This document shows, one piece after another, positions 1,879-10,546 of a stretch of DNA of 64,000 nt. Under the pieces are notes generated by a model. It was given only the letters and a program-made list of their open reading frames with translations, made no database searches and was not told the origin of the DNA. This DNA is from an uncultured cyanobacterium (GTDB lineage: Bacteria > Cyanobacteriota > Cyanobacteriia > Pseudanabaenales > Pseudanabaenaceae): NCBI GenBank assembly GCA_963703315.1, contig OY969811.1:1056001-1120000 (forward strand), in the 5' to 3' direction. The stretch's first letter is position 1, and the number at the start of each line of letters is the position of its first letter. A program made the translations under genes and the position numbers.

Positions 1879-2316
1879 TTAGTCCATTTTCTTTTTAGCT
1901 GCTGTTGATGGATATCGGTTATTTTCGATGAGTATTTGGCGCTCTAAAATACGATCTGCATCATTAAAATCAAGAATTCTTGCGGTAACTTCGCCGATGT
2001 CTGTAGTTGGTTGAATTATCGCTCCATCTAGTTGAAAATGTTCTCTCCATGAGTCTCGGCGAGGGTTGAAGAATCTGACTAGTTCTCCGTTTCGCCAATT
2101 AATTGAGCCTAGATCTGTGCCTTTTTGCAGGTTACAGAATAGGCAAGCATAGCAAAGATTTTCGGCTGTCGAGTCACCGCCATGTTTTACACTAATGATG
2201 TGGTCAACTTGGCAAGATGGCGTATTTTCTTCTGCAATCAGGCAATACTCACATGAATAATCTGCACGTTGTGCAACTAAGCGCCGCAACTCAGCCCTAA
2301 TGTAAGATCGAGGCAT
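1879..2316 (-). CDS. HNH endonuclease
   Basis: CEYC...VDHII...HGG...NLCYACLFCN zinc-binding HNH signature. Confidence 0.85.
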   Translation of the reverse strand: MPRSYIRAELRRLVAQRADYSCEYCLIAEENTPSCQVDHIISVKHGGDSTAENLCYACLFCNLQKGTDLGSINWRNGELVRFFNPRRDSWREHFQLDGAIIQPTTDIGEVTARILDFNDADRILERQILIENNRYPSTAAKKKMD

Positions 2317-2578
2317 TTTCTTTAATTCCAGTGTCGATATATTTGTAGGCTTTAGCTTTAGCGAGTCTGAGGATATGTTCTAATACTAAATATTTCTCTA
2401 ATTCTCTTTTATCTTCTTTTGTAAGTTCATTGTTTTTAGCACCGTGAACTAAATCCTCTAGGCGCTCTTGTGCGGCTTCAGAAAGATGGAAGTCGATTAC
2501 GCTCTGGGGAGTTGTGCCAGATGCAATGAAGTCAACAATTTCATCGTAAACTTTGATGGTTTTAGTGGCTGTGTTCAT
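2297..2578 (-). CDS. Small helical protein, putative antitoxin partner of the HNH gene
   Basis: 93-aa ORF overlapping the HNH start; RLEDL...ELTKEDKRELEKY pattern typical of HNH-linked partners. Confidence 0.55.
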   Translation of the reverse strand: MNTATKTIKVYDEIVDFIASGTTPQSVIDFHLSEAAQERLEDLVHGAKNNELTKEDKRELEKYLVLEHILRLAKAKAYKYIDTGIKENASILH

Positions 2579-2652
2579 AGCTAGGTTCTGATTATGATCC
2601 TTGTGGCGATCTGATTATATCATCAGAGCTTTTGGTAATCATTTGCTGTAAT

Positions 2653-2868
2653 TCATGCGTACATCAACCGTCCTTTGGGTGTGGGGATGATTCTTCCTAA
2701 CATTTTTGCTGTTTCTATCCATTCTTGAATAATGATCTCGGCGTTGGCTACGGCTTCAGCATAGCTTTGTCCATCTGCCATGCAACCTGCAAGTTCAGGA
2801 ATTTCAACGATGAACGCATCATCTGATTCACTCCAATAAACAATTAGTTCGTATTTAATTGGTGTCAT
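2653..2868 (-). CDS. HicB family antitoxin
   Basis: YWSESDDAFIVEIPELAGCMADGQSYAEAVANAE...GRIIPTP HicB motif. Confidence 0.85.
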   Translation of the reverse strand: MTPIKYELIVYWSESDDAFIVEIPELAGCMADGQSYAEAVANAEIIIQEWIETAKMLGRIIPTPKGRLMYA

Positions 2869-3268
2869 TTTCTTTCTGTGGTTCTTGGCTTATTATTTGT
2901 TGAATTTCTTGGCAAATTTTTTCTAGCAAAGGAGCATCTGAAGCAACTACATTATCTTCAATGCGATCGTGTTTGTGATGGGGAAATGTTGATAGATTTA
3001 GCTTTTGATGGTGAGGAGCATTGTCATAGCGAAAAATTAGATCTCCTTCTTTACTCATGTATTGATAGGTATACTTGCCTCTATCAATGGATATTTCTAC
3101 ATCAACAAATTCTCGGATATGCAGTAATGAGCCATCATTAAAATAGATATTGCCTCTAATGAAGCCGAGTGTATCTGTACGGGTTTCTGTCTCAAGTTCA
3201 AATCTTTGAGTAATTGCAAGATTGGAAAGTACATTTCTGATTTCTGCAAAATAATTATCAATCAACAA
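2855..3268 (-). CDS. DUF6516/TumE-like toxin family protein
   Basis: YTYQY...LIFRYDNAPHH...TFPHHKH motif. Confidence 0.75.
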   Translation of the reverse strand: MLIDNYFAEIRNVLSNLAITQRFELETETRTDTLGFIRGNIYFNDGSLLHIREFVDVEISIDRGKYTYQYMSKEGDLIFRYDNAPHHQKLNLSTFPHHKHDRIEDNVVASDAPLLEKICQEIQQIISQEPQKENDTN

Positions 3269-3548
3269 ATTCGATCTCCTTGATGATTGCTTGTTTTTGC
3301 TGTAATTTCTCTAACATCCAAGCTTCGCCTAGCCATTCATCAAAATCTAGGCTATGTTGTAATTGATCGTTGGTGAAAAGGTTAATAAAATTTTCGGTTG
3401 ACCAATGATATTGGGTTTCAAACTGGGTTAGTTTTTGGTGTGTGGTTTGTATTGCTGCTTCAATGCTTTGCAACCTTTTAGCAAGGTCACTTTCGATCAT
3501 TTCTTTGATAGATTCTGGATGACTAGATCTTAATTTCAGTACATTCAT
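3258..3548 (-). CDS. Putative antitoxin partner of the TumE-like gene
   Basis: LTQFETQYHWSTENF...LDFDEW motif; overlaps the downstream toxin; likely start ATG 3548 (MNVLKL) rather than 3593. Confidence 0.65.
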   Translation of the reverse strand: MNVLKLRSSHPESIKEMIESDLAKRLQSIEAAIQTTHQKLTQFETQYHWSTENFINLFTNDQLQHSLDFDEWLGEAWMLEKLQQKQAIIKEIEFVD

Positions 3549-3646
3549 ATTTTTTAGCCTAATCCTATGTCCTAAAATAGCATCAACCAACAAAACTCAA
3601 AAAATTTACATTTTCCTTTTACCCTTTTCCTTTTTCCTTGATCGCC

Positions 3647-3868
3647 CTAGGCAGCAACTAATTGTCTTTCTTGGATAGGGTGATGGTATAAAACCATTAA
3701 CTGTCTTTCTGTTAGGGTTTCGATCGCATAGGCTCTTCCATTGAGGTCGCTAAATTCGACTTCAAAGACTTTAGGTTCGTAAACTTCTACAATTGTGCCA
3801 ACTTGTCCTCGATATAAATGGCAATTGGGGACATCTTCTAAGAGTGCGACTACATCCAATAATTTCAT
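3647..3868 (-). CDS. DUF4926 domain protein
   Basis: MKLLDVVALLEDVP...GQVGTIVEVY...FEVEFSD...GRAYA; likely start ATG 3868. Confidence 0.8.
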   Translation of the reverse strand: MKLLDVVALLEDVPNCHLYRGQVGTIVEVYEPKVFEVEFSDLNGRAYAIETLTERQLMVLYHHPIQERQLVAA

Positions 3869-3887
3869 AATAGAATCTTTTTTTCTG

Positions 3888-4142
3888 TTAGTAGGCATCT
3901 TTACGATGACTGACACTTAGCAATAATACAATTAGCTCTCTGTCTTTAATTTCGTAGATAATGCGATAGTCTCCAACTCTGACACGATAGGTATTGTCGT
4001 AGCCTTTAAGCTTTTTAACTCCGTTCGGACGCGGATCGTCGGCTAGAGAGCGCAATGTCACAATCAAGCGATCGCGTTCAATTTTTGAGATGTTATCTAG
4101 CTGCTTTTGGGCTGGTTTAGGGATAACGATCTGATAGCTCAT
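3888..4142 (-). CDS. RelE/ParE family toxin
   Basis: DPRPNGVKKLKG...YRVRVGDYRIIYEI...VSHRKDAY. Confidence 0.9.
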   Translation of the reverse strand: MSYQIVIPKPAQKQLDNISKIERDRLIVTLRSLADDPRPNGVKKLKGYDNTYRVRVGDYRIIYEIKDRELIVLLLSVSHRKDAY

Positions 4143-4348
4143 GCTTGATTTGCCTCGTATTGATCGAGGGTTAGATAATCACCTGAGAGATAGGCTGTTT
4201 GGGAAGAGAGAATATTTTCTTTTTCTTCTGAGGTTATTTCCTCTTCTACATAGCGAGATTTGAGAAACAATACAAAGTCAAGGGTTTCTGCTAATAGGGA
4301 TTCAGAAATATTTTCGACTTCTTGAATTAACTTTTCTTTGATAGTCAT
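4139..4348 (-). CDS. DUF2281-like antitoxin
   Basis: KEKLIQEVENISESLLAETLDFVLFLK; 4-nt overlap with the RelE gene. Confidence 0.7.
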   Translation of the reverse strand: MTIKEKLIQEVENISESLLAETLDFVLFLKSRYVEEEITSEEKENILSSQTAYLSGDYLTLDQYEANQA

Positions 4349-4378: not shown

Positions 4379-7300
4379 TTACATTGCCTCACGGATCGGC
4401 TGAAGCCAACTGATCGCATTTTGAGTTGTCGGATGCTCTGTGCCAAGTTTTTGTTCGTAAATTTGGATGGCGCGTTGGATGGATTGTAGGGCTTGGGGAT
4501 GACGTTGGGTATTGTGATAGAGGACGGCTAAGTTGAGTAGACTGGTGGCGACAGAGGGATGGTCTGCTCCTAGTTGTCGTTCATTGATTTCGAGCGATCG
4601 CAGATAGAGAGGTTCGGCTTCGCTGTACTTCCCTTGCGATTCGTAAAGTGATGCGAGATTGTTGAGACTGGTGGCGACAGAGGGATGGTCTGCTCCTAGT
4701 TGGCGTTCCCTGATCGAGAGCGATCGCAGATAGAGAGGTTCGGCTTCGCTGTACTTTCCTTGCGATTCGTAAAGATTTGCGAGATTGTTGAGACTGGAAG
4801 CGAGATCGGGATGGTCTGCTCCTAGTTTTTGTTCTCCGATTTCGAGTGATCGCACATAGAGTGGTTCACTTTCGCTGTACTTCCCTTGTACTTGGTAAAG
4901 TAATGCTAGATTGTTGAGACCAGCGGCAACAGAGGGATGGTCTGCTCCTAGTTGGCATTCCCATATCGAGAGCGATCGCACATACAGTGGTTCAGCTTCG
5001 CTGTACTTCCCTTGTACTCGGTAAAGTGATGCCAGATTGTTGAGAGTTTGGGCGACATCGGGATGGTCTGCTCCTAATTTTCGTTCCCCGATTTCGAGTG
5101 ATTGCAGATAGAGGGGTTTGGCTTCGCTGTATTTCCCTTGCGATTCGTAAAGATTTGCGAGATTGTTGAGACTGATGGCAACATCGGGATGGTCTGCTCC
5201 TAGTTGCCGTTCCCTAATCGAGAGCGATCGCACATAGAGTGGTTCGGCTTCGCTGTATTTCCCTTGCGATTCGTAAAATAATGCAAGATTGTTGAGACTG
5301 CTGGCAACAGAGGGATGTTCCGATCCTAGTTGGCGATCGTTGATCGAGAGCGATCGCACTAAAAGTGGCTCGGCTTCACTGTACCTCCCTTGCGCTCGAT
5401 AAAGTTGTGCAAGATTGTTTAGACTGTTGGCGAAATCGGGATTGTCTTCTCCTAGTTGGCGCTCGTTGATCGAGAGTGATCGCAGATAGAGAGGTTCGGC
5501 TTCGCTGTACTTCCCTTGCGCTTGATAAAGTTCTGCAAGATTGTTTAGACTGTTGGCGACATCGGGATTGTCTTCTCCCAGTTGGCGTTCCCTGATTTCG
5601 AGCGATCGCAGATAGAGAGGTTCAGCTTCGCTGTAATTCCCTTGCGCTCGATAAAGTTGTGCAAGACCGTTGATACTGTTGGCGACATCGGGATTGTCTT
5701 CTCCTAGTTGGCGTTCCCTGATTTCGAGCGATCGCAGATGGAGAGGTTCGGCTTCGCTGTATTTCCCTTGCGATTGGTAGACCACAGCTAAACTATTCAC
5801 GCTATTTGCGACATCAATATGGTTTTTACCAAGTCGCTCCTCTTTAATGGCGATCGCTCGAAGAAATATTTGTTCTGCTTCAACATACATTCCTTGTAGT
5901 CGATATAGTCTTGCTAATGAATGTAAATAATCTGACAGGGTGAGAGAACTACCTTTAGTCGTAGCAATCTTAACGGCTTCTTTGGCAGTGATAATTCCAT
6001 CTTGATATTTATTCAATTTATCAAAAACTTGAGAGATTGTATGGAGATAACCCGCCAAAATCATACTGTTCTCAGGCAAAGCCACCCGCGCTTGCTCGAT
6101 CGCCCTCTGATAACCCTTAATCGCCTCACCAAAATAATTTTGAGCAGCCCCAGATTCACCCTTAGCCAAAGCCGCCTTAGCCCGATCATGGGTACTTTGC
6201 GCTTGACGATAGGTTGCCTCAAAAATTGGTGCTTGGTTTAACCGAAAACTACCACCAATGAGATTATTTTTTTGCAGTTTATAGGCACTGACTAAAGCAG
6301 GATTTGTAACGGATTTGAGCCGATCTTCCACAAATTTTTGAGCCGATGCAAAATGTGGGCGGAAGGGTTGCCATGCTGTCACCAGATCCCAAGCCGCAAA
6401 CGCAGGAATCTCATTAGCGCGATCGCTCAGTCCCCGTAACCATGCATCTTGCCAACCCTCGCGATCAAATCCATCCCATTGCATAGCAAAAAACTCATGA
6501 ATTAACCGATGCAAGCGATAGGTTTTACCCTCATCCACACTTTGAATCAGAGTCCTTGTCCGCAAATCAATTTCGGCTTTAGTCAGATTCCGAATTGGCA
6601 CAAAAGCTGGTTGATTCGGCTCCGCAGGTTTCCCTAAAAATGGTAATAGCCCCCTCACCAACTGCCCCAACGAATCCCAAAACCTTTGCCACCAACTTTT
6701 GCGAACAATCGGCGCTGCTGACGGTTGCGGATAGGAACGCACCACCGCCTCCACCAACTCCCAAGGCAAATTGATCGGTTCAAACAAACTCAAAACCCGC
6801 CCTAATTGCTGTGCATCAGGTGACAACTGTTGCCAACTCACCGTAATTACCGCCTTCAAACCCTGCTTAATGTTTTTACTAGCATCAATATTTTCAGGAG
6901 CTTCGGCAATTGGTTCCAATACTTCACTTGCCAGCCCTTCTTGTTCCAATTTAGCGATCGCCTTCGGCAAAGTATCTTGGGTAATCTTCAACCAATTCCC
7001 CACCAAAGTCAGCGCTAAGGGCAAACATCCCAAGCGATCGCAAAGACTTCTGGCAAGCTCAGGATGATCAAGCACCGTTTGCTGATTTGGTTCCGCCCAT
7101 TTTGTCAATACCTGCACCGCCGCTTCAGTCTCCAATTCCTGAATTTCATGCACTGCCAAATTACCGCGCAACTGCGATCGCGAAGTCAGCACAAACCGAA
7201 ACGGACAGCGATCGCCTGAAATCTTTGGTAAATAGGGCGCAACTTGCTCATGATAATTCGTCACATCATCAATAACGATCAGCGCCAATCGCTCCGCACC

Positions 7301-7882
7301 ACAAAATTTTTGCCATGCTTGCCAACCTTCTTCTACCTGTGCTTCTAAAGTTCTCAAATACCGTAAATCGCGATCTTCAGAAAACCGCGACTGCATAAAA
7401 TCCCTGAGATCTTCTCCAAAATGCGCTACATCAAAAATCCCAACCCCACCCACATAATCATTCAGATGCAATTTGCCATACTGCCGCACCAGTTCACTTT
7501 TACCTACACCTGCCATGCCCACAATTAGCACAGTCGGTAAATGTCCCACTTGCTCAGATTGCGCTTGCAACAACCCATGTAGTTTATCTAAGTCAGCCTC
7601 ACGCCCCACAAAATTGCCATTGCGATCAATCTCGCGATCCCCTAGATTGTTATAAAAGCTTTGGTCATGGGTGAACTTTTCCGATTGAAGATCATTTGTG
7701 CGATCGCCGACAATCAAAGTGCCAATATTTACAGTACTTCCAGATTGAGGAACCACCCCAATTTTGTCAGCAATTTTATTCGGCTCATGATGAATCTCTT
7801 GGGAGATATTCGCATTGACATCACCACCAGCCGTGACATTTTCAAGCGCTGTTTGCTTGTTTTGCGGATCTTGTTCAGCCAT
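4379..7882 (-). CDS. NLR-like STAND NTPase (NB-ARC) with C-terminal 42-aa TPR array and short N-terminal motifs
   Basis: FVGRE, Walker A GMAGVGKS, Walker B LIVIDDV, TSR sensor, LGCLPLAL; about 11 kinesin-light-chain-type TPRs (HPDVAxSLNNLAxLYxxQGKYSEAEPLY). Confidence 0.92.
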   Translation of the reverse strand: MAEQDPQNKQTALENVTAGGDVNANISQEIHHEPNKIADKIGVVPQSGSTVNIGTLIVGDRTNDLQSEKFTHDQSFYNNLGDREIDRNGNFVGREADLDKLHGLLQAQSEQVGHLPTVLIVGMAGVGKSELVRQYGKLHLNDYVGGVGIFDVAHFGEDLRDFMQSRFSEDRDLRYLRTLEAQVEEGWQAWQKFCGAERLALIVIDDVTNYHEQVAPYLPKISGDRCPFRFVLTSRSQLRGNLAVHEIQELETEAAVQVLTKWAEPNQQTVLDHPELARSLCDRLGCLPLALTLVGNWLKITQDTLPKAIAKLEQEGLASEVLEPIAEAPENIDASKNIKQGLKAVITVSWQQLSPDAQQLGRVLSLFEPINLPWELVEAVVRSYPQPSAAPIVRKSWWQRFWDSLGQLVRGLLPFLGKPAEPNQPAFVPIRNLTKAEIDLRTRTLIQSVDEGKTYRLHRLIHEFFAMQWDGFDREGWQDAWLRGLSDRANEIPAFAAWDLVTAWQPFRPHFASAQKFVEDRLKSVTNPALVSAYKLQKNNLIGGSFRLNQAPIFEATYRQAQSTHDRAKAALAKGESGAAQNYFGEAIKGYQRAIEQARVALPENSMILAGYLHTISQVFDKLNKYQDGIITAKEAVKIATTKGSSLTLSDYLHSLARLYRLQGMYVEAEQIFLRAIAIKEERLGKNHIDVANSVNSLAVVYQSQGKYSEAEPLHLRSLEIRERQLGEDNPDVANSINGLAQLYRAQGNYSEAEPLYLRSLEIRERQLGEDNPDVANSLNNLAELYQAQGKYSEAEPLYLRSLSINERQLGEDNPDFANSLNNLAQLYRAQGRYSEAEPLLVRSLSINDRQLGSEHPSVASSLNNLALFYESQGKYSEAEPLYVRSLSIRERQLGADHPDVAISLNNLANLYESQGKYSEAKPLYLQSLEIGERKLGADHPDVAQTLNNLASLYRVQGKYSEAEPLYVRSLSIWECQLGADHPSVAAGLNNLALLYQVQGKYSESEPLYVRSLEIGEQKLGADHPDLASSLNNLANLYESQGKYSEAEPLYLRSLSIRERQLGADHPSVATSLNNLASLYESQGKYSEAEPLYLRSLEINERQLGADHPSVATSLLNLAVLYHNTQRHPQALQSIQRAIQIYEQKLGTEHPTTQNAISWLQPIREAM
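4520..5800. repeat. Intragenic tandem array of about 10 near-identical 126-bp units (TPR-coding)
   Basis: gag(c/t)gat(c/t)gca recurs at 126-bp spacing from about 4594 to 5727. Confidence 0.9.
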
Positions 7883-7897
7883 GCTAAATTCCCTTTA

Positions 7898-8853
7898 TAG
7901 CTATAGCCAGCTAGGTTAGGACATAAAATAGAAAGAAACTGAGACATCTGAGCAACAACAATGCCAAAACCATATAGTTACGATTTGCGTCAAAAGGTAA
8001 TGCAAGCAATCGAAATGGATGGACTGAAGAAAAATGAAGCCAGTCAATTGTTCGGGATTAGTCGAAACACAATCAACTTGTGGTTTGAGAGACGGGAAGA
8101 AACAGGAGATATAACCGTAAAGGCAAGAGCATCGTCTAGTCAGAAGCCCAAAATTAGCGACTGGGAAAAGTTTCGAGAATTTGTCAAAGAGCATGAGGAT
8201 AAGACCCAAGCAGAGATGGCAGAATTATGGGGAAATATCAGTCAAAGGTCTATATCACGAGCGTTAAAACAGATAGGATTTACCCGTAAAAAAAAACTTA
8301 TGGTTATCGGGAACGAGATGAAGAAAAACGTAATGAGTTTCGCACAGCCTTAGGCGATCCAAAAGCATCCCACTTAGTTTACGTTGATGAATCAGGGATG
8401 GATGAACGTGATAATTATGGATATGGATGGTCTGCAAAAGGTGAGCGAATTCATGGACTCAAAGCAGGTCGTCGTCAGGGACGTATTAATATGATTGCGG
8501 GATATCGAGATGGACAACTAATTGCCCCCTTTACAATTAAAGGCTGTTGCAACCGCAACGTATTTGAAATCTGGTTAGAATCTTGCTTGATTCCAACTCT
8601 CAAGGCTGGGCAATGGGTAATTATCGATAATGCTACTTTCCATCATGGTGGACGCATTCAGGATTTGATAGCAGCAGCAGGATGTAAGGTCGTCTATTTA
8701 CCTCCATATTCTCCAGACCTTAATCGCATTGAGAAATGTTGGGCTTGGCTCAAATCTCGTATTCGTAAACTCCTACGCAATTCAGCTAATCTTCATGATG
8801 CTATTGACTCCGTTCTTGCCCTTGCTGCGTCCTAACTTGACTGGCTATAGCTA
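7898..8853 (+). mobile_element. IS630-family insertion sequence
   Basis: Terminal IRs TAGCTATAGCCAGCTAGGTTAGGAC and (reverse complement) TAGCTATAGCCAGTCAAGTTAGGAC; TA duplication at 7896-97 and 8854-55. Confidence 0.93.
7961..8835 (+). CDS. IS630 transposase, OrfA+OrfB joined by -1 frameshift
   Basis: OrfA HTH (YSYDLRQKV); A9 run at 8288-8296 joins to TYGYRERDEE...VYVDESG; DDE residues in VDESG, IIDNA and LPPYSPDLNRIE. Confidence 0.9.
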
Positions 8854-8868
8854 TATCTTGATTGGATA

Positions 8869-9180
8869 TCAACTAGCAGAATATTTTGCGCGGCTTTGCT
8901 CATATAAACTCGCCACAGAAATATGCGTTAAATAAAACTCTTCACCTTCCGAATCGCGCAAAGCATCCACATAAGCATCAATCCCACGCGGTTTTGGTAA
9001 CTCATCGACATCGGCAAGATGTAAAACCAACGCCGATCGCATCAGCTTTGTCGTTTCTTCCAAAGTCTCACCCGTAGCAATACAACCCGCCACATCAGGT
9101 GAATATGCTGAAAACCCAGTGTCACTTTTTTCTAAGACGATGAGATATTGGTCAATCATTTCGCGTACTTTTGTGGTCAT
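8869..9180 (-). CDS. HicB family antitoxin
   Basis: YLIVLEKSDTGFSAYSPDVAGCIATGETLEE. Confidence 0.8.
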   Translation of the reverse strand: MTTKVREMIDQYLIVLEKSDTGFSAYSPDVAGCIATGETLEETTKLMRSALVLHLADVDELPKPRGIDAYVDALRDSEGEEFYLTHISVASLYEQSRAKYSAS

Positions 9181-9401
9181 GATTCCCTTAAAAGTTCTTC
9201 TACCGTCAAACCAATATCGCGAGCAATCTGACGTAACAAAGTCGGTGAAATATCCCGTCCCTTATGACATGGAACCGTAGTACCTCGTCCATCCGCATGA
9301 CGAAACTGCTTATGCGATCCTCTTTGTCTCACTTCCACAAAACCAAGATTTTCTAGCAATCGAATAACTTGCTGCGGTTTAAGGACAGGAATATTACCCA
9401 T
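9177..9401 (-). CDS. HicA family toxin
   Basis: LENLGFVEVRQRGSHKQFRH...TTVPCH...LLRQIARDIGL. Confidence 0.9.
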   Translation of the reverse strand: MGNIPVLKPQQVIRLLENLGFVEVRQRGSHKQFRHADGRGTTVPCHKGRDISPTLLRQIARDIGLTVEELLRES

Positions 9402-9421
9402 AATTTTATTTGCCTATTGAT

Positions 9422-9631
9422 TTAGGCGATCGCAATTAACTGAGTGCCGACAAACTCTGACTGCGGTGGAATCACGTCTTCTTCTAAAAGCATCGCAATT
9501 ACTTCTTGCAAATTCTCACGCAACTCATCTAGAGTCTCTCCTTGAGAATGTGCGCCCACAAATGAAGGGACATAACCCACATATAGGTTAGTGTCTACAT
9601 CTTTTTCAATAACAGCAGTAAATACCTTCAT
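9422..9631 (-). CDS. HicB family antitoxin
   Basis: FTAVIEKD...YVGYVP...GAHSQGETLDELRENLQEVI. Confidence 0.88.
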   Translation of the reverse strand: MKVFTAVIEKDVDTNLYVGYVPSFVGAHSQGETLDELRENLQEVIAMLLEEDVIPPQSEFVGTQLIAIA

Positions 9632-9654
9632 AAAATCCTCTGTAAAAAACTGAA

Positions 9655-10074
9655 TTACATATTGAACGTTGCAATATCCGCCTTGCCACCACTTTGCACC
9701 ACAATACCAATTTTTTCGGCTAACTTGTTGGGATTCTGAGATTTTGGCTGGCTCAGTTGTAATTGCAAAGCCTCAACCTTAGCCGCTAGCTCTTTATTGC
9801 TAGATAAAAGCGATCGCACCTCATCCAACAACTTCACCACATCAGGATCATCAGCGATCACCTCTACATCAATCACCGCCTGTCCAGCATCAAAAGCTTC
9901 ACCCGCACTAATCGCTTTTACAGTCTGCGTATTTGGAGCCTTACGACTGAGAACAGACCAAAGCGATCTCGCCAGCTTCACCGTCTCATCGGTAATATTT
10001 TCGCCAACCTTAGTGAGAGAACCAGTGCCAACAATTACCAACAAACCCACAATTAAAGAAGAAACTGGCTCCAT
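9655..10074 (-). CDS. Small helical Bell-like putative effector with C-terminal putative amyloid motif
   Basis: Hydrophobic N-terminal helix MEPVSSLIVGLLVIVG, helical body, and tail PNKLAEKIGIVVQSGGKADIATFNM matching NLR residues 34-58. Confidence 0.7.
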   Translation of the reverse strand: MEPVSSLIVGLLVIVGTGSLTKVGENITDETVKLARSLWSVLSRKAPNTQTVKAISAGEAFDAGQAVIDVEVIADDPDVVKLLDEVRSLLSSNKELAAKVEALQLQLSQPKSQNPNKLAEKIGIVVQSGGKADIATFNM

Positions 10075-10111: not shown

Positions 10112-10546
10112 TCACACATTACTACTAGAAACTAAAGCGATCGCCTCTTGAATAATGCGATCGCGATCGACCATTTCCCCTAACTCCACCGATTCATAAT
10201 GTCCACCGAACGCCTCACCCGCAGCAGCATCTAACGCAATGTCATAGGCATCTTCCAAAGCCTCGCGTAGTTCTGAAGGTTCGCAATAATTTCCTTTAGC
10301 CTTACGCCGTTGGTTAGTACGCTGAATTTCTCGTACCGAATTTTTAATTGAAAGATCCCCCGATCTTGTAGTGCGATTTTCGGCACGTTGTTTGATCAGA
10401 TGGAGTAGCAAGATTTTGGCAAAGCTATATATCTTATTCAGCTTGTCATCCTTGCTCATCTCTGTCATCTCTTCCACTATCAGCAAGGCATCGGAGATAT
10501 TGCCACTGAGCAAAAATGCCTTTAGTTCTAACAACTCTTCCATCAC
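10112..10546 (-). CDS. DUF29 family protein
   Basis: MEELLELK...EEMTEMSKDDK...ILLLHLIK...TTRS.DLSI. Confidence 0.75.
   Translation of the reverse strand: MMEELLELKAFLLSGNISDALLIVEEMTEMSKDDKLNKIYSFAKILLLHLIKQRAENRTTRSGDLSIKNSVREIQRTNQRRKAKGNYCEPSELREALEDAYDIALDAAAGEAFGGHYESVELGEMVDRDRIIQEAIALVSSSNV

Follow-up and report, generated by a model that had tools for sequence, protein, structure and literature searches.

A BASS5 Bell/NLR gene pair in a Pseudanabaena-like cyanobacterium, with a second, BASS4-like motif on the NLR

In the bacterial amyloid signalling sequence (BASS) systems described by Dyrka et al. (10.1101/2020.01.06.895854), a short motif is found both at the C-terminus of a small Bell effector and at the N-terminus of a NOD-like receptor (NLR). 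According to the available parts of that work and of its data set (PMC8086366), whose README equates C07 with class BASS5 and C06 with class BASS4, the BASS5 pairs are collinear within 5 kb and join an NB-ARC/TPR sensor to a helical effector of about 140 aa in a cyanobacterial host. Here we describe a pair with all of these features in a stretch of 64,000 nucleotides, which we call the window, from an uncultured cyanobacterium of the Pseudanabaenaceae (assembly GCA_963703315.1, contig OY969811.1, positions 1,056,001 to 1,120,000). Its members are a 139-aa effector at 9655..10074 and an NLR of 1167 aa at 4379..7882, both on the minus strand. An earlier, sequence-only reading of the window had proposed that the two genes form an amyloid-signalling module, and had left it open whether their shared motif was already catalogued. 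We assign the motif to BASS5, and the core pair is an unsurprising further member of a catalogued class; the NLR, however, carries a BASS4-like motif ahead of the BASS5 one.

The experimental models for such a pair come from other classes. For BASS1 and BASS3, fibrils are formed and the NLR-side motifs convert the effector-side ones (10.1101/2020.01.06.895854); for BASS11, fibrils and conversion are reported in antiphage abortive infection by Bab/Agp (10.1101/2024.11.07.622273). As far as the accessible text describes it, Bab/Agp shares with our pair a small Bell-related effector, a MEPIS-type helix 1, a C-terminal amyloid motif and a TPR-containing activator, and it is our experimental model for the mechanism proposed below. 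It differs in that Agp is a TPR-GreA/B-PIN protein and not an NB-ARC one, and in that Bab has another motif class and a shorter Babybell domain. In the fungal systems NWD2/HET-S and PNT1/HELLP, as the available sections of PMC7889193 and PMC3321046 present them, an N-terminal NLR motif templates the C-terminal motif of the effector, and PNT1 is, like the window NLR, an NB-ARC/TPR protein; the motifs themselves are different, and Bell and HeLo domains are reviewed there as having no detectable sequence homology.

The shared motif occupies residues 115-139 of the effector (9658..9732, minus strand) and residues 34-58 of the NLR (7709..7783, minus strand). As the sequence-only reading had stated, the two segments align without gaps, with 13 identities in the first 22 residues (13/25 overall), and the proteins are otherwise dissimilar: a BLASTP comparison of the whole effector with the NLR returns a single stretch, namely the motif and the eight residues that precede it. 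Since only 44 of the 75 coding bases are identical, the similarity lies at the level of protein and does not reflect a recent copy of the DNA. We scored the effector 25-mer against the first 100 residues, counted from the first methionine, of the 3,009 open reading frames (ORFs) of at least 150 aa in the genome. It scores 68 on this NLR, compared with 33 for the runner-up and a mean of 5.2 (standard deviation 5.6). A hidden Markov model (HMM) built from effectors only also recovers the NLR copy (E 8e-5). The proline in this copy, at position 45, had been suspected of weakening the templating; it recurs in two of eight other NLR homologues, and the published BASS5 NLR-side entries that are available often have a proline two residues further on, so that it is not a unique lesion.

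Comparison with the published entries, made by eye and not by profile HMM scores, places the motif in BASS5. The effector tail is identical to entry C07_s040 at 31 of 36 positions (PMC8086366, supplement 1), 22 of them among the 25 residues of the motif, and the N-terminus of the window NLR is arranged in the same way as that of the C07 NLR-side entry OYQ63523.1. On this comparison the motif is not a new one. A partner in the published sense, as the accessible text defines it, is an NB-ARC or NACHT protein with TPR or WD repeats within 5 kb, usually collinear; the window NLR is an NB-ARC/TPR protein 1,772 nt away. Pfam is blank over residues 1-60 of the NLR, which bears out the earlier claim that it has no enzymatic N-terminal domain. 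The NB-ARC/AAA_16 match begins near residue 90 (residues 90-317; 6932..7615, minus strand; Pfam NB-ARC E 1.7e-8, AAA_16 E 6.1e-9), with Walker A (residues 122-129) and Walker B (201-206) both intact. Pfam matches and repeat comparison further identify eleven 42-residue TPR repeats (4433..5818, minus strand), whose mean pairwise identity is 67% (31-88%) and which are probably a variable sensor.

The effector agrees with the published description of Bell proteins, in the parts available: it has 139 aa (compared with about 120-140), it is helical, its first helix is hydrophobic (hydropathy about 2 across residues 1-21), and it has an acidic residue at position 2 (E2), where the description asks for one at position 2 or 3. 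Its MEPVS start agrees with the MEPIS region of Bab and Bell (10.1101/2024.11.07.622273). An AlphaFold model is all-helical up to about residue 108, where the helical domain ends (predicted local distance difference test, pLDDT, 62; predicted template modelling score 0.46), and the BASS5 tail has a pLDDT below 50. Searches with this model of pLDDT 62 give a best E of 1.6 in Foldseek and a best Z of 5.4 in VIA-align, which is below the noise level for helical proteins and still compatible with a Bell fold, in which, as in HeLo-like and MLKL-like folds, other helices cup helix 1; they list no structural match to Bab. A profile search of PDB sequences finds generic helical matches only, and neither Pfam nor PADLOC has a family for the effector. 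Its closest named homologues are from Pseudanabaena. One homologue (P0020) is 78% identical over its full length, and its last 36 residues are exactly a published Bell-side fragment, as seen in the available entries. The effector profile retrieves 247 representatives at E ≤0.001, with a BASS5-like ending in 50 of the 148 newly listed.

Within the genus, effector matches occur in 27 of 48 genomes. The helical domain stays constant across 120 homologues, and the tails, assigned by our own patterns, are BASS5-type in 55 cases, BASS4-type in 43, BASS3-type in 19 and of other kinds in 3. The pairing of effectors with NLRs was studied in 34 stretches from relatives and three from this genome, a sample that takes in every listed place in the relatives except two at contig ends and one match that was an NLR motif. 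Where the effector is BASS5-tailed, the next NLR has BASS5 too at ten of eleven loci, which is the neighbourhood pairing that had been suggested as a check. Over the 31 loci that have both an effector and a downstream NLR, the mean score of an effector tail against its cognate NLR is 44.5, compared with 21.1 for pairs of different classes, and none of 10,000 random re-pairings is as high, a test that overstates the result because the loci come from kin genomes. Outside the 31 are L051, L054, L066 and L067 (no downstream NLR found), L068 (an effector fragment missed by the HMM), and L075 and L076 (no effector). Judged from these scores, the tail type of an effector predicts the N-terminus of the next NLR.

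The exception among the eleven loci, L042 (G047:C2:524900-531700), combines a BASS5 effector with a BASS3 NLR. Its gene order, seen once, is the BASS5 effector, a 150-aa ORF that ends in BASS5 followed by BASS3, a hicB gene and the BASS3 NLR. The 150-aa ORF has no Pfam match, and its product is a candidate motif converter. At L059 and L069 the effectors have tails that look, by eye, BASS9-like and BASS7-like, and the downstream NTPase has no matching motif.

The second NLR motif, which the sequence-only reading overlooked, lies at residues 8-30 (7793..7861, minus strand), ahead of BASS5. An HMM built from the N-termini of 11 single-motif NLRs that stand beside BASS4-type effectors matches it with an independent E-value of 9.4e-7 among 15,639 ORFs. 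Ten such first-motif segments have a mean score of 33.6 with BASS4-type tails of the same effector family (7.2 when shuffled) and of 4.7 with BASS5 tails. The label BASS4 reflects a likeness, by eye, to the available C06 NLR-side entries. We considered whether the two NLR motifs are pseudo-repeats and rejected the idea on their mutual score of 6.8. A first motif of this kind is also visible in OYQ63523.1, which is labelled C07 only. In the accessible parts of the BASS literature (including PMC9815663, PMC7889193 and PMC3321046) there is no bacterial NLR with two BASS classes, although the tandem may be mentioned in the journal version of Dyrka et al.; the available text of PMC12261475 gave no match to the terms searched. 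Five fungal Tuber sequences have a combined two-motif configuration (PMC9815663). Same-class repeats on effectors, as well as links of BASS to CHAT and TIR, are already in print (10.1101/2020.01.06.895854).

We found 16 places with the two-motif end, in 11 of the 48 genus genomes; the query alignment for the search had included 10 of the 16. A search of 300 other cyanobacterial genomes gave no instance of it, and single-motif matches in eight. Seven of the places lie behind a BASS5 effector (one of them a fragment) and two behind a BASS4 effector; of the rest, two lack an effector match in the neighbourhood, two lie inside the protein after an additional domain, and three come after a 164-167-aa ORF in another frame. 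The two-motif end is found on several NB-ARC lineages and on one NACHT protein. A tree of 24 NB-ARC bodies groups NLRs of one motif type no better than it groups shuffled labels, and the BASS4-like motif stands alone on bodies that share 82-83% identity with that of the window NLR. We therefore infer that the N-terminus is a cassette that is exchanged among NLRs. In two relatives (L057, L060) a BASS4-tailed effector lies within 5 kb of a two-motif NLR. Unlike the BASS4 pairs, the window NLR has no BASS4-tailed effector within 5 kb, and no intact one was found in its genome. The genome does have a second effector/NLR pair, with BASS4-type motifs, at G000:C1:2969784-2972933.

The sequence-only reading also missed what lies between the two genes, which share a strand. 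From the effector onwards there are a hicB-like antitoxin gene (9422..9631; Pfam HicB_lk_antitox E 1.1e-6), a hicA toxin gene (9177..9401; HicA_toxin E 2.3e-20) and a second hicB-like gene (8869..9180; Pfam E 2.3e-8), all on the minus strand, and then an insertion sequence (IS) of type IS630 at 7896..8856 on the plus strand, which has TA ends, terminal inverted repeats and transposase ORFs at 7961-8353 and 8398-8835 (Pfam HTH_Tnp_IS630, DDE_3). In relatives, toxin-antitoxin or DUF29-like genes are common between effector and NLR, and at other loci close relatives of the second hicB-like gene immediately precede NLRs. IS630 ends 13 nt ahead of the NLR ATG, on the strand opposite to the NLR, and a purine-rich, ribosome-binding-like site is kept in between. 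The genome has four full copies of the element, one of the others being 100% identical. Among the sequencing runs studied (those with small word shares were left out), one contig of run X2 (depth 3.7, 88% likeness) joins position 7895 to 8854, and the remaining pieces of this run show 0-1 differences from the region. In this IS-free allele the NLR begins about 28 nt behind hicB. The IS-free contig and the identical IS copy together imply that the insertion is recent and that the ancestral order was effector-hicB-hicA-hicB-NLR. A promoter and terminator scan of the locus is at or below chance level, and its sole minus-strand promoter-like site, at 8252-8224, is inside IS630. In this genome the element separates the NLR from the genes upstream and may lower its expression. 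A dense minus-strand array of toxin-antitoxin type flanks the pair (window 1879-4348 and 10112-10546), with HNH, HicB, TumE, DUF4926, ParE, DUF2281 and DUF29 members.

We consider it likely that this Pseudanabaena-like BASS5 pair works by amyloid activation of the Bell effector, templated by the NLR, and leads to cell death; we are less sure of phage as the trigger, for which the argument is one of analogy. In such a mechanism the TPR repeats would recognise a danger ligand, for which a phage product is the most likely candidate, and the NB-ARC domain would oligomerise and so bring the N-terminal motifs together as a cross-beta seed. Oligomerisation is established for STAND proteins. The seed would template the BASS5 tail of the Bell protein, as in BASS1, BASS3, BASS11 and HET-S, and templating would, as in Bab, release the hydrophobic MEPVS helix, which would then damage the membrane and cause cell death. 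The two-motif end would allow effectors of both kinds to be partners of one sensor. The evidence above supports the amyloid-signalling interpretation first proposed from the sequence, and we also count the toxin-antitoxin-rich surroundings in its favour. Several results weigh against it, beyond the inflated re-pairing test. Effector and NLR are not adjacent: 57% of published collinear pairs, in the available data, are at most 10 bp apart, whereas here 1,772 nt, with three hic genes and IS630, intervene. Four of the 31 pairs (L042, L059, L064, L069) score below 20. PADLOC finds only a generic TPR match at the locus, and the fibril tests in the accessible literature are of BASS1, BASS3 and BASS11 only, with none for BASS5 or BASS4. 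As regards the first motif, an HMM built from effector-side BASS4 tails alone does not place it among its top matches; in the BASS4 effector paralog of this genome (G000:C1:2969784-2970414), a tandem duplication of about 110 nt has disrupted the gene; and, with the window effector as query, both effector types occur in only 2 of the 11 two-motif genomes, which tells against two partners being strictly required.

Chance similarity between two low-complexity segments is a negligible prospect: short and rich in G, V, I and K as the motif is, the gap between the score of 68 and the next-best 33, the co-variation across loci, the HMM matches and the membership in a published class refute it. It is improbable, to a lesser degree, that the motif is a non-amyloid docking peptide, or that the output is something other than phage defence, such as the pruning of damaged filament cells. 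Such a reading could appeal to the AlphaFold models, which have no strands in the motifs and only a short low-confidence helix (pLDDT 53 for NLR residues 1-60), and to the statement that the function of Bell/NLR pairs is still to be shown (10.1101/2024.11.07.622273, in the text available). However, the motif segments have pLDDT 38-59 and amyloids are invisible to models of a monomer; moreover, the tested BASS classes are fibrillar, and Bab/Agp is antiphage, in the accessible accounts. It is also rather unlikely, and in any case compatible with NLR-templated signalling, that in this genome the system is inactive or uncoupled because IS630 blocks read-through from the effector and hic genes into the NLR. 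The position and strand of the element, its identical copy elsewhere, the close spacing of hicB and NLR in the IS-free allele and the lack of a minus-strand promoter-like site near the ATG, in a scan below chance level, agree with such a block; yet both reading frames and the Walker motifs are intact, a ribosome-binding-like site remains, and the NLR could be served by an outward promoter, which IS elements can supply.

The rival that most concerns the second motif has close to an even chance, in our estimation: the first motif would be a leftover of cassette shuffling without a use, or an extra nucleation rung for the NLR itself, and the NLR would signal to the BASS5 effector alone. That N-terminal cassettes move freely among NB-ARC lineages, that most two-motif genomes have one effector type, and that the arrangement is confined to one genus among the 48 genus and 300 other genomes all agree with this. 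On the other hand, both motifs are kept in 16 of 16 places, even on NB-ARC bodies that are about 30% identical; the two motifs are mutually unrelated, unlike the published pseudo-repeats of BASS effectors; and the first motif is also found at the end of caspase-domain proteins in three other genomes, and within a CHAT protein of the window genome. We offer tentatively, as a possibility that we would somewhat sooner doubt than accept, that the NLR is bispecific and seeds two orthogonal amyloid channels, one to its Bell neighbour and one to distant BASS4-tailed Bell, caspase or CHAT proteins, which, together with the converter at L042, would make up a combinatorial, genome-wide code. If so, the genus would wire sensors to effectors through splitters and converters, beyond one-to-one gene pairs, and a bispecific two-motif end would bring branching and conversion into amyloid signalling in a form that can be tested with short peptides. 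The family offers controls for such work, in its natural motif swaps on a near-constant effector and in the IS-free allele. The interest of the pair itself is that, in the literature as available, BASS5 and BASS4 have no published bench test and Bell/NLR pairs no demonstrated function.

Related motifs appear on other proteins of the genus. In the window genome, a CHAT-EAD9 protein (G000:C1:3745930-3748240) begins in a BASS5-like way and contains the first motif again internally (14/20 identical, by eye); the next gene encodes a TPR protein whose start is EAD-like. In other genomes of the genus, 11 loci encode CHAT proteins with BASS5-like starts; the three that were checked are CHAT-TPR, and several genomes with such proteins have no effector match. 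Caspase-type proteins of 354-365 aa that end in the BASS4-like motif were seen in 4 of 10 fetched stretches, from three genomes (L131, L132, L134, L136), and one of them is confirmed by Pfam (Peptidase_C14, with a weak EAD10). In two NLRs (L125:4717-7941 and L127) an extra helical N-terminal domain and a segment that is BASS9-like by eye precede the two-motif cassette, and a small ORF upstream of the former has a similar tail.

Finally, at G000:C1:38381-41232 (L075:588-3433), and also at L128:4489-7349, L129 and L140, a 164-aa ORF ends in A_AAA_AAG followed by a stop codon. The candidate slippery site (G000:C1:38870-38881) is preceded, at a distance of about 14 nt, by AGGAG and followed by a weak hairpin, and the -1 frame runs on, without an ATG, into a two-motif NB-ARC/TPR protein. 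We regard this as a candidate programmed -1 frameshift, which would yield a short and a long form of the NLR; among literature titles we found none on such frameshifting in NLRs. The arrangement resembles the dnaX-type signal as described in the available part of PMC3711429. The same A_AAA_AAG signal is present in genomes G012 and G033, and in G030 a related ORF upstream ends, at the protein level, in the same way.

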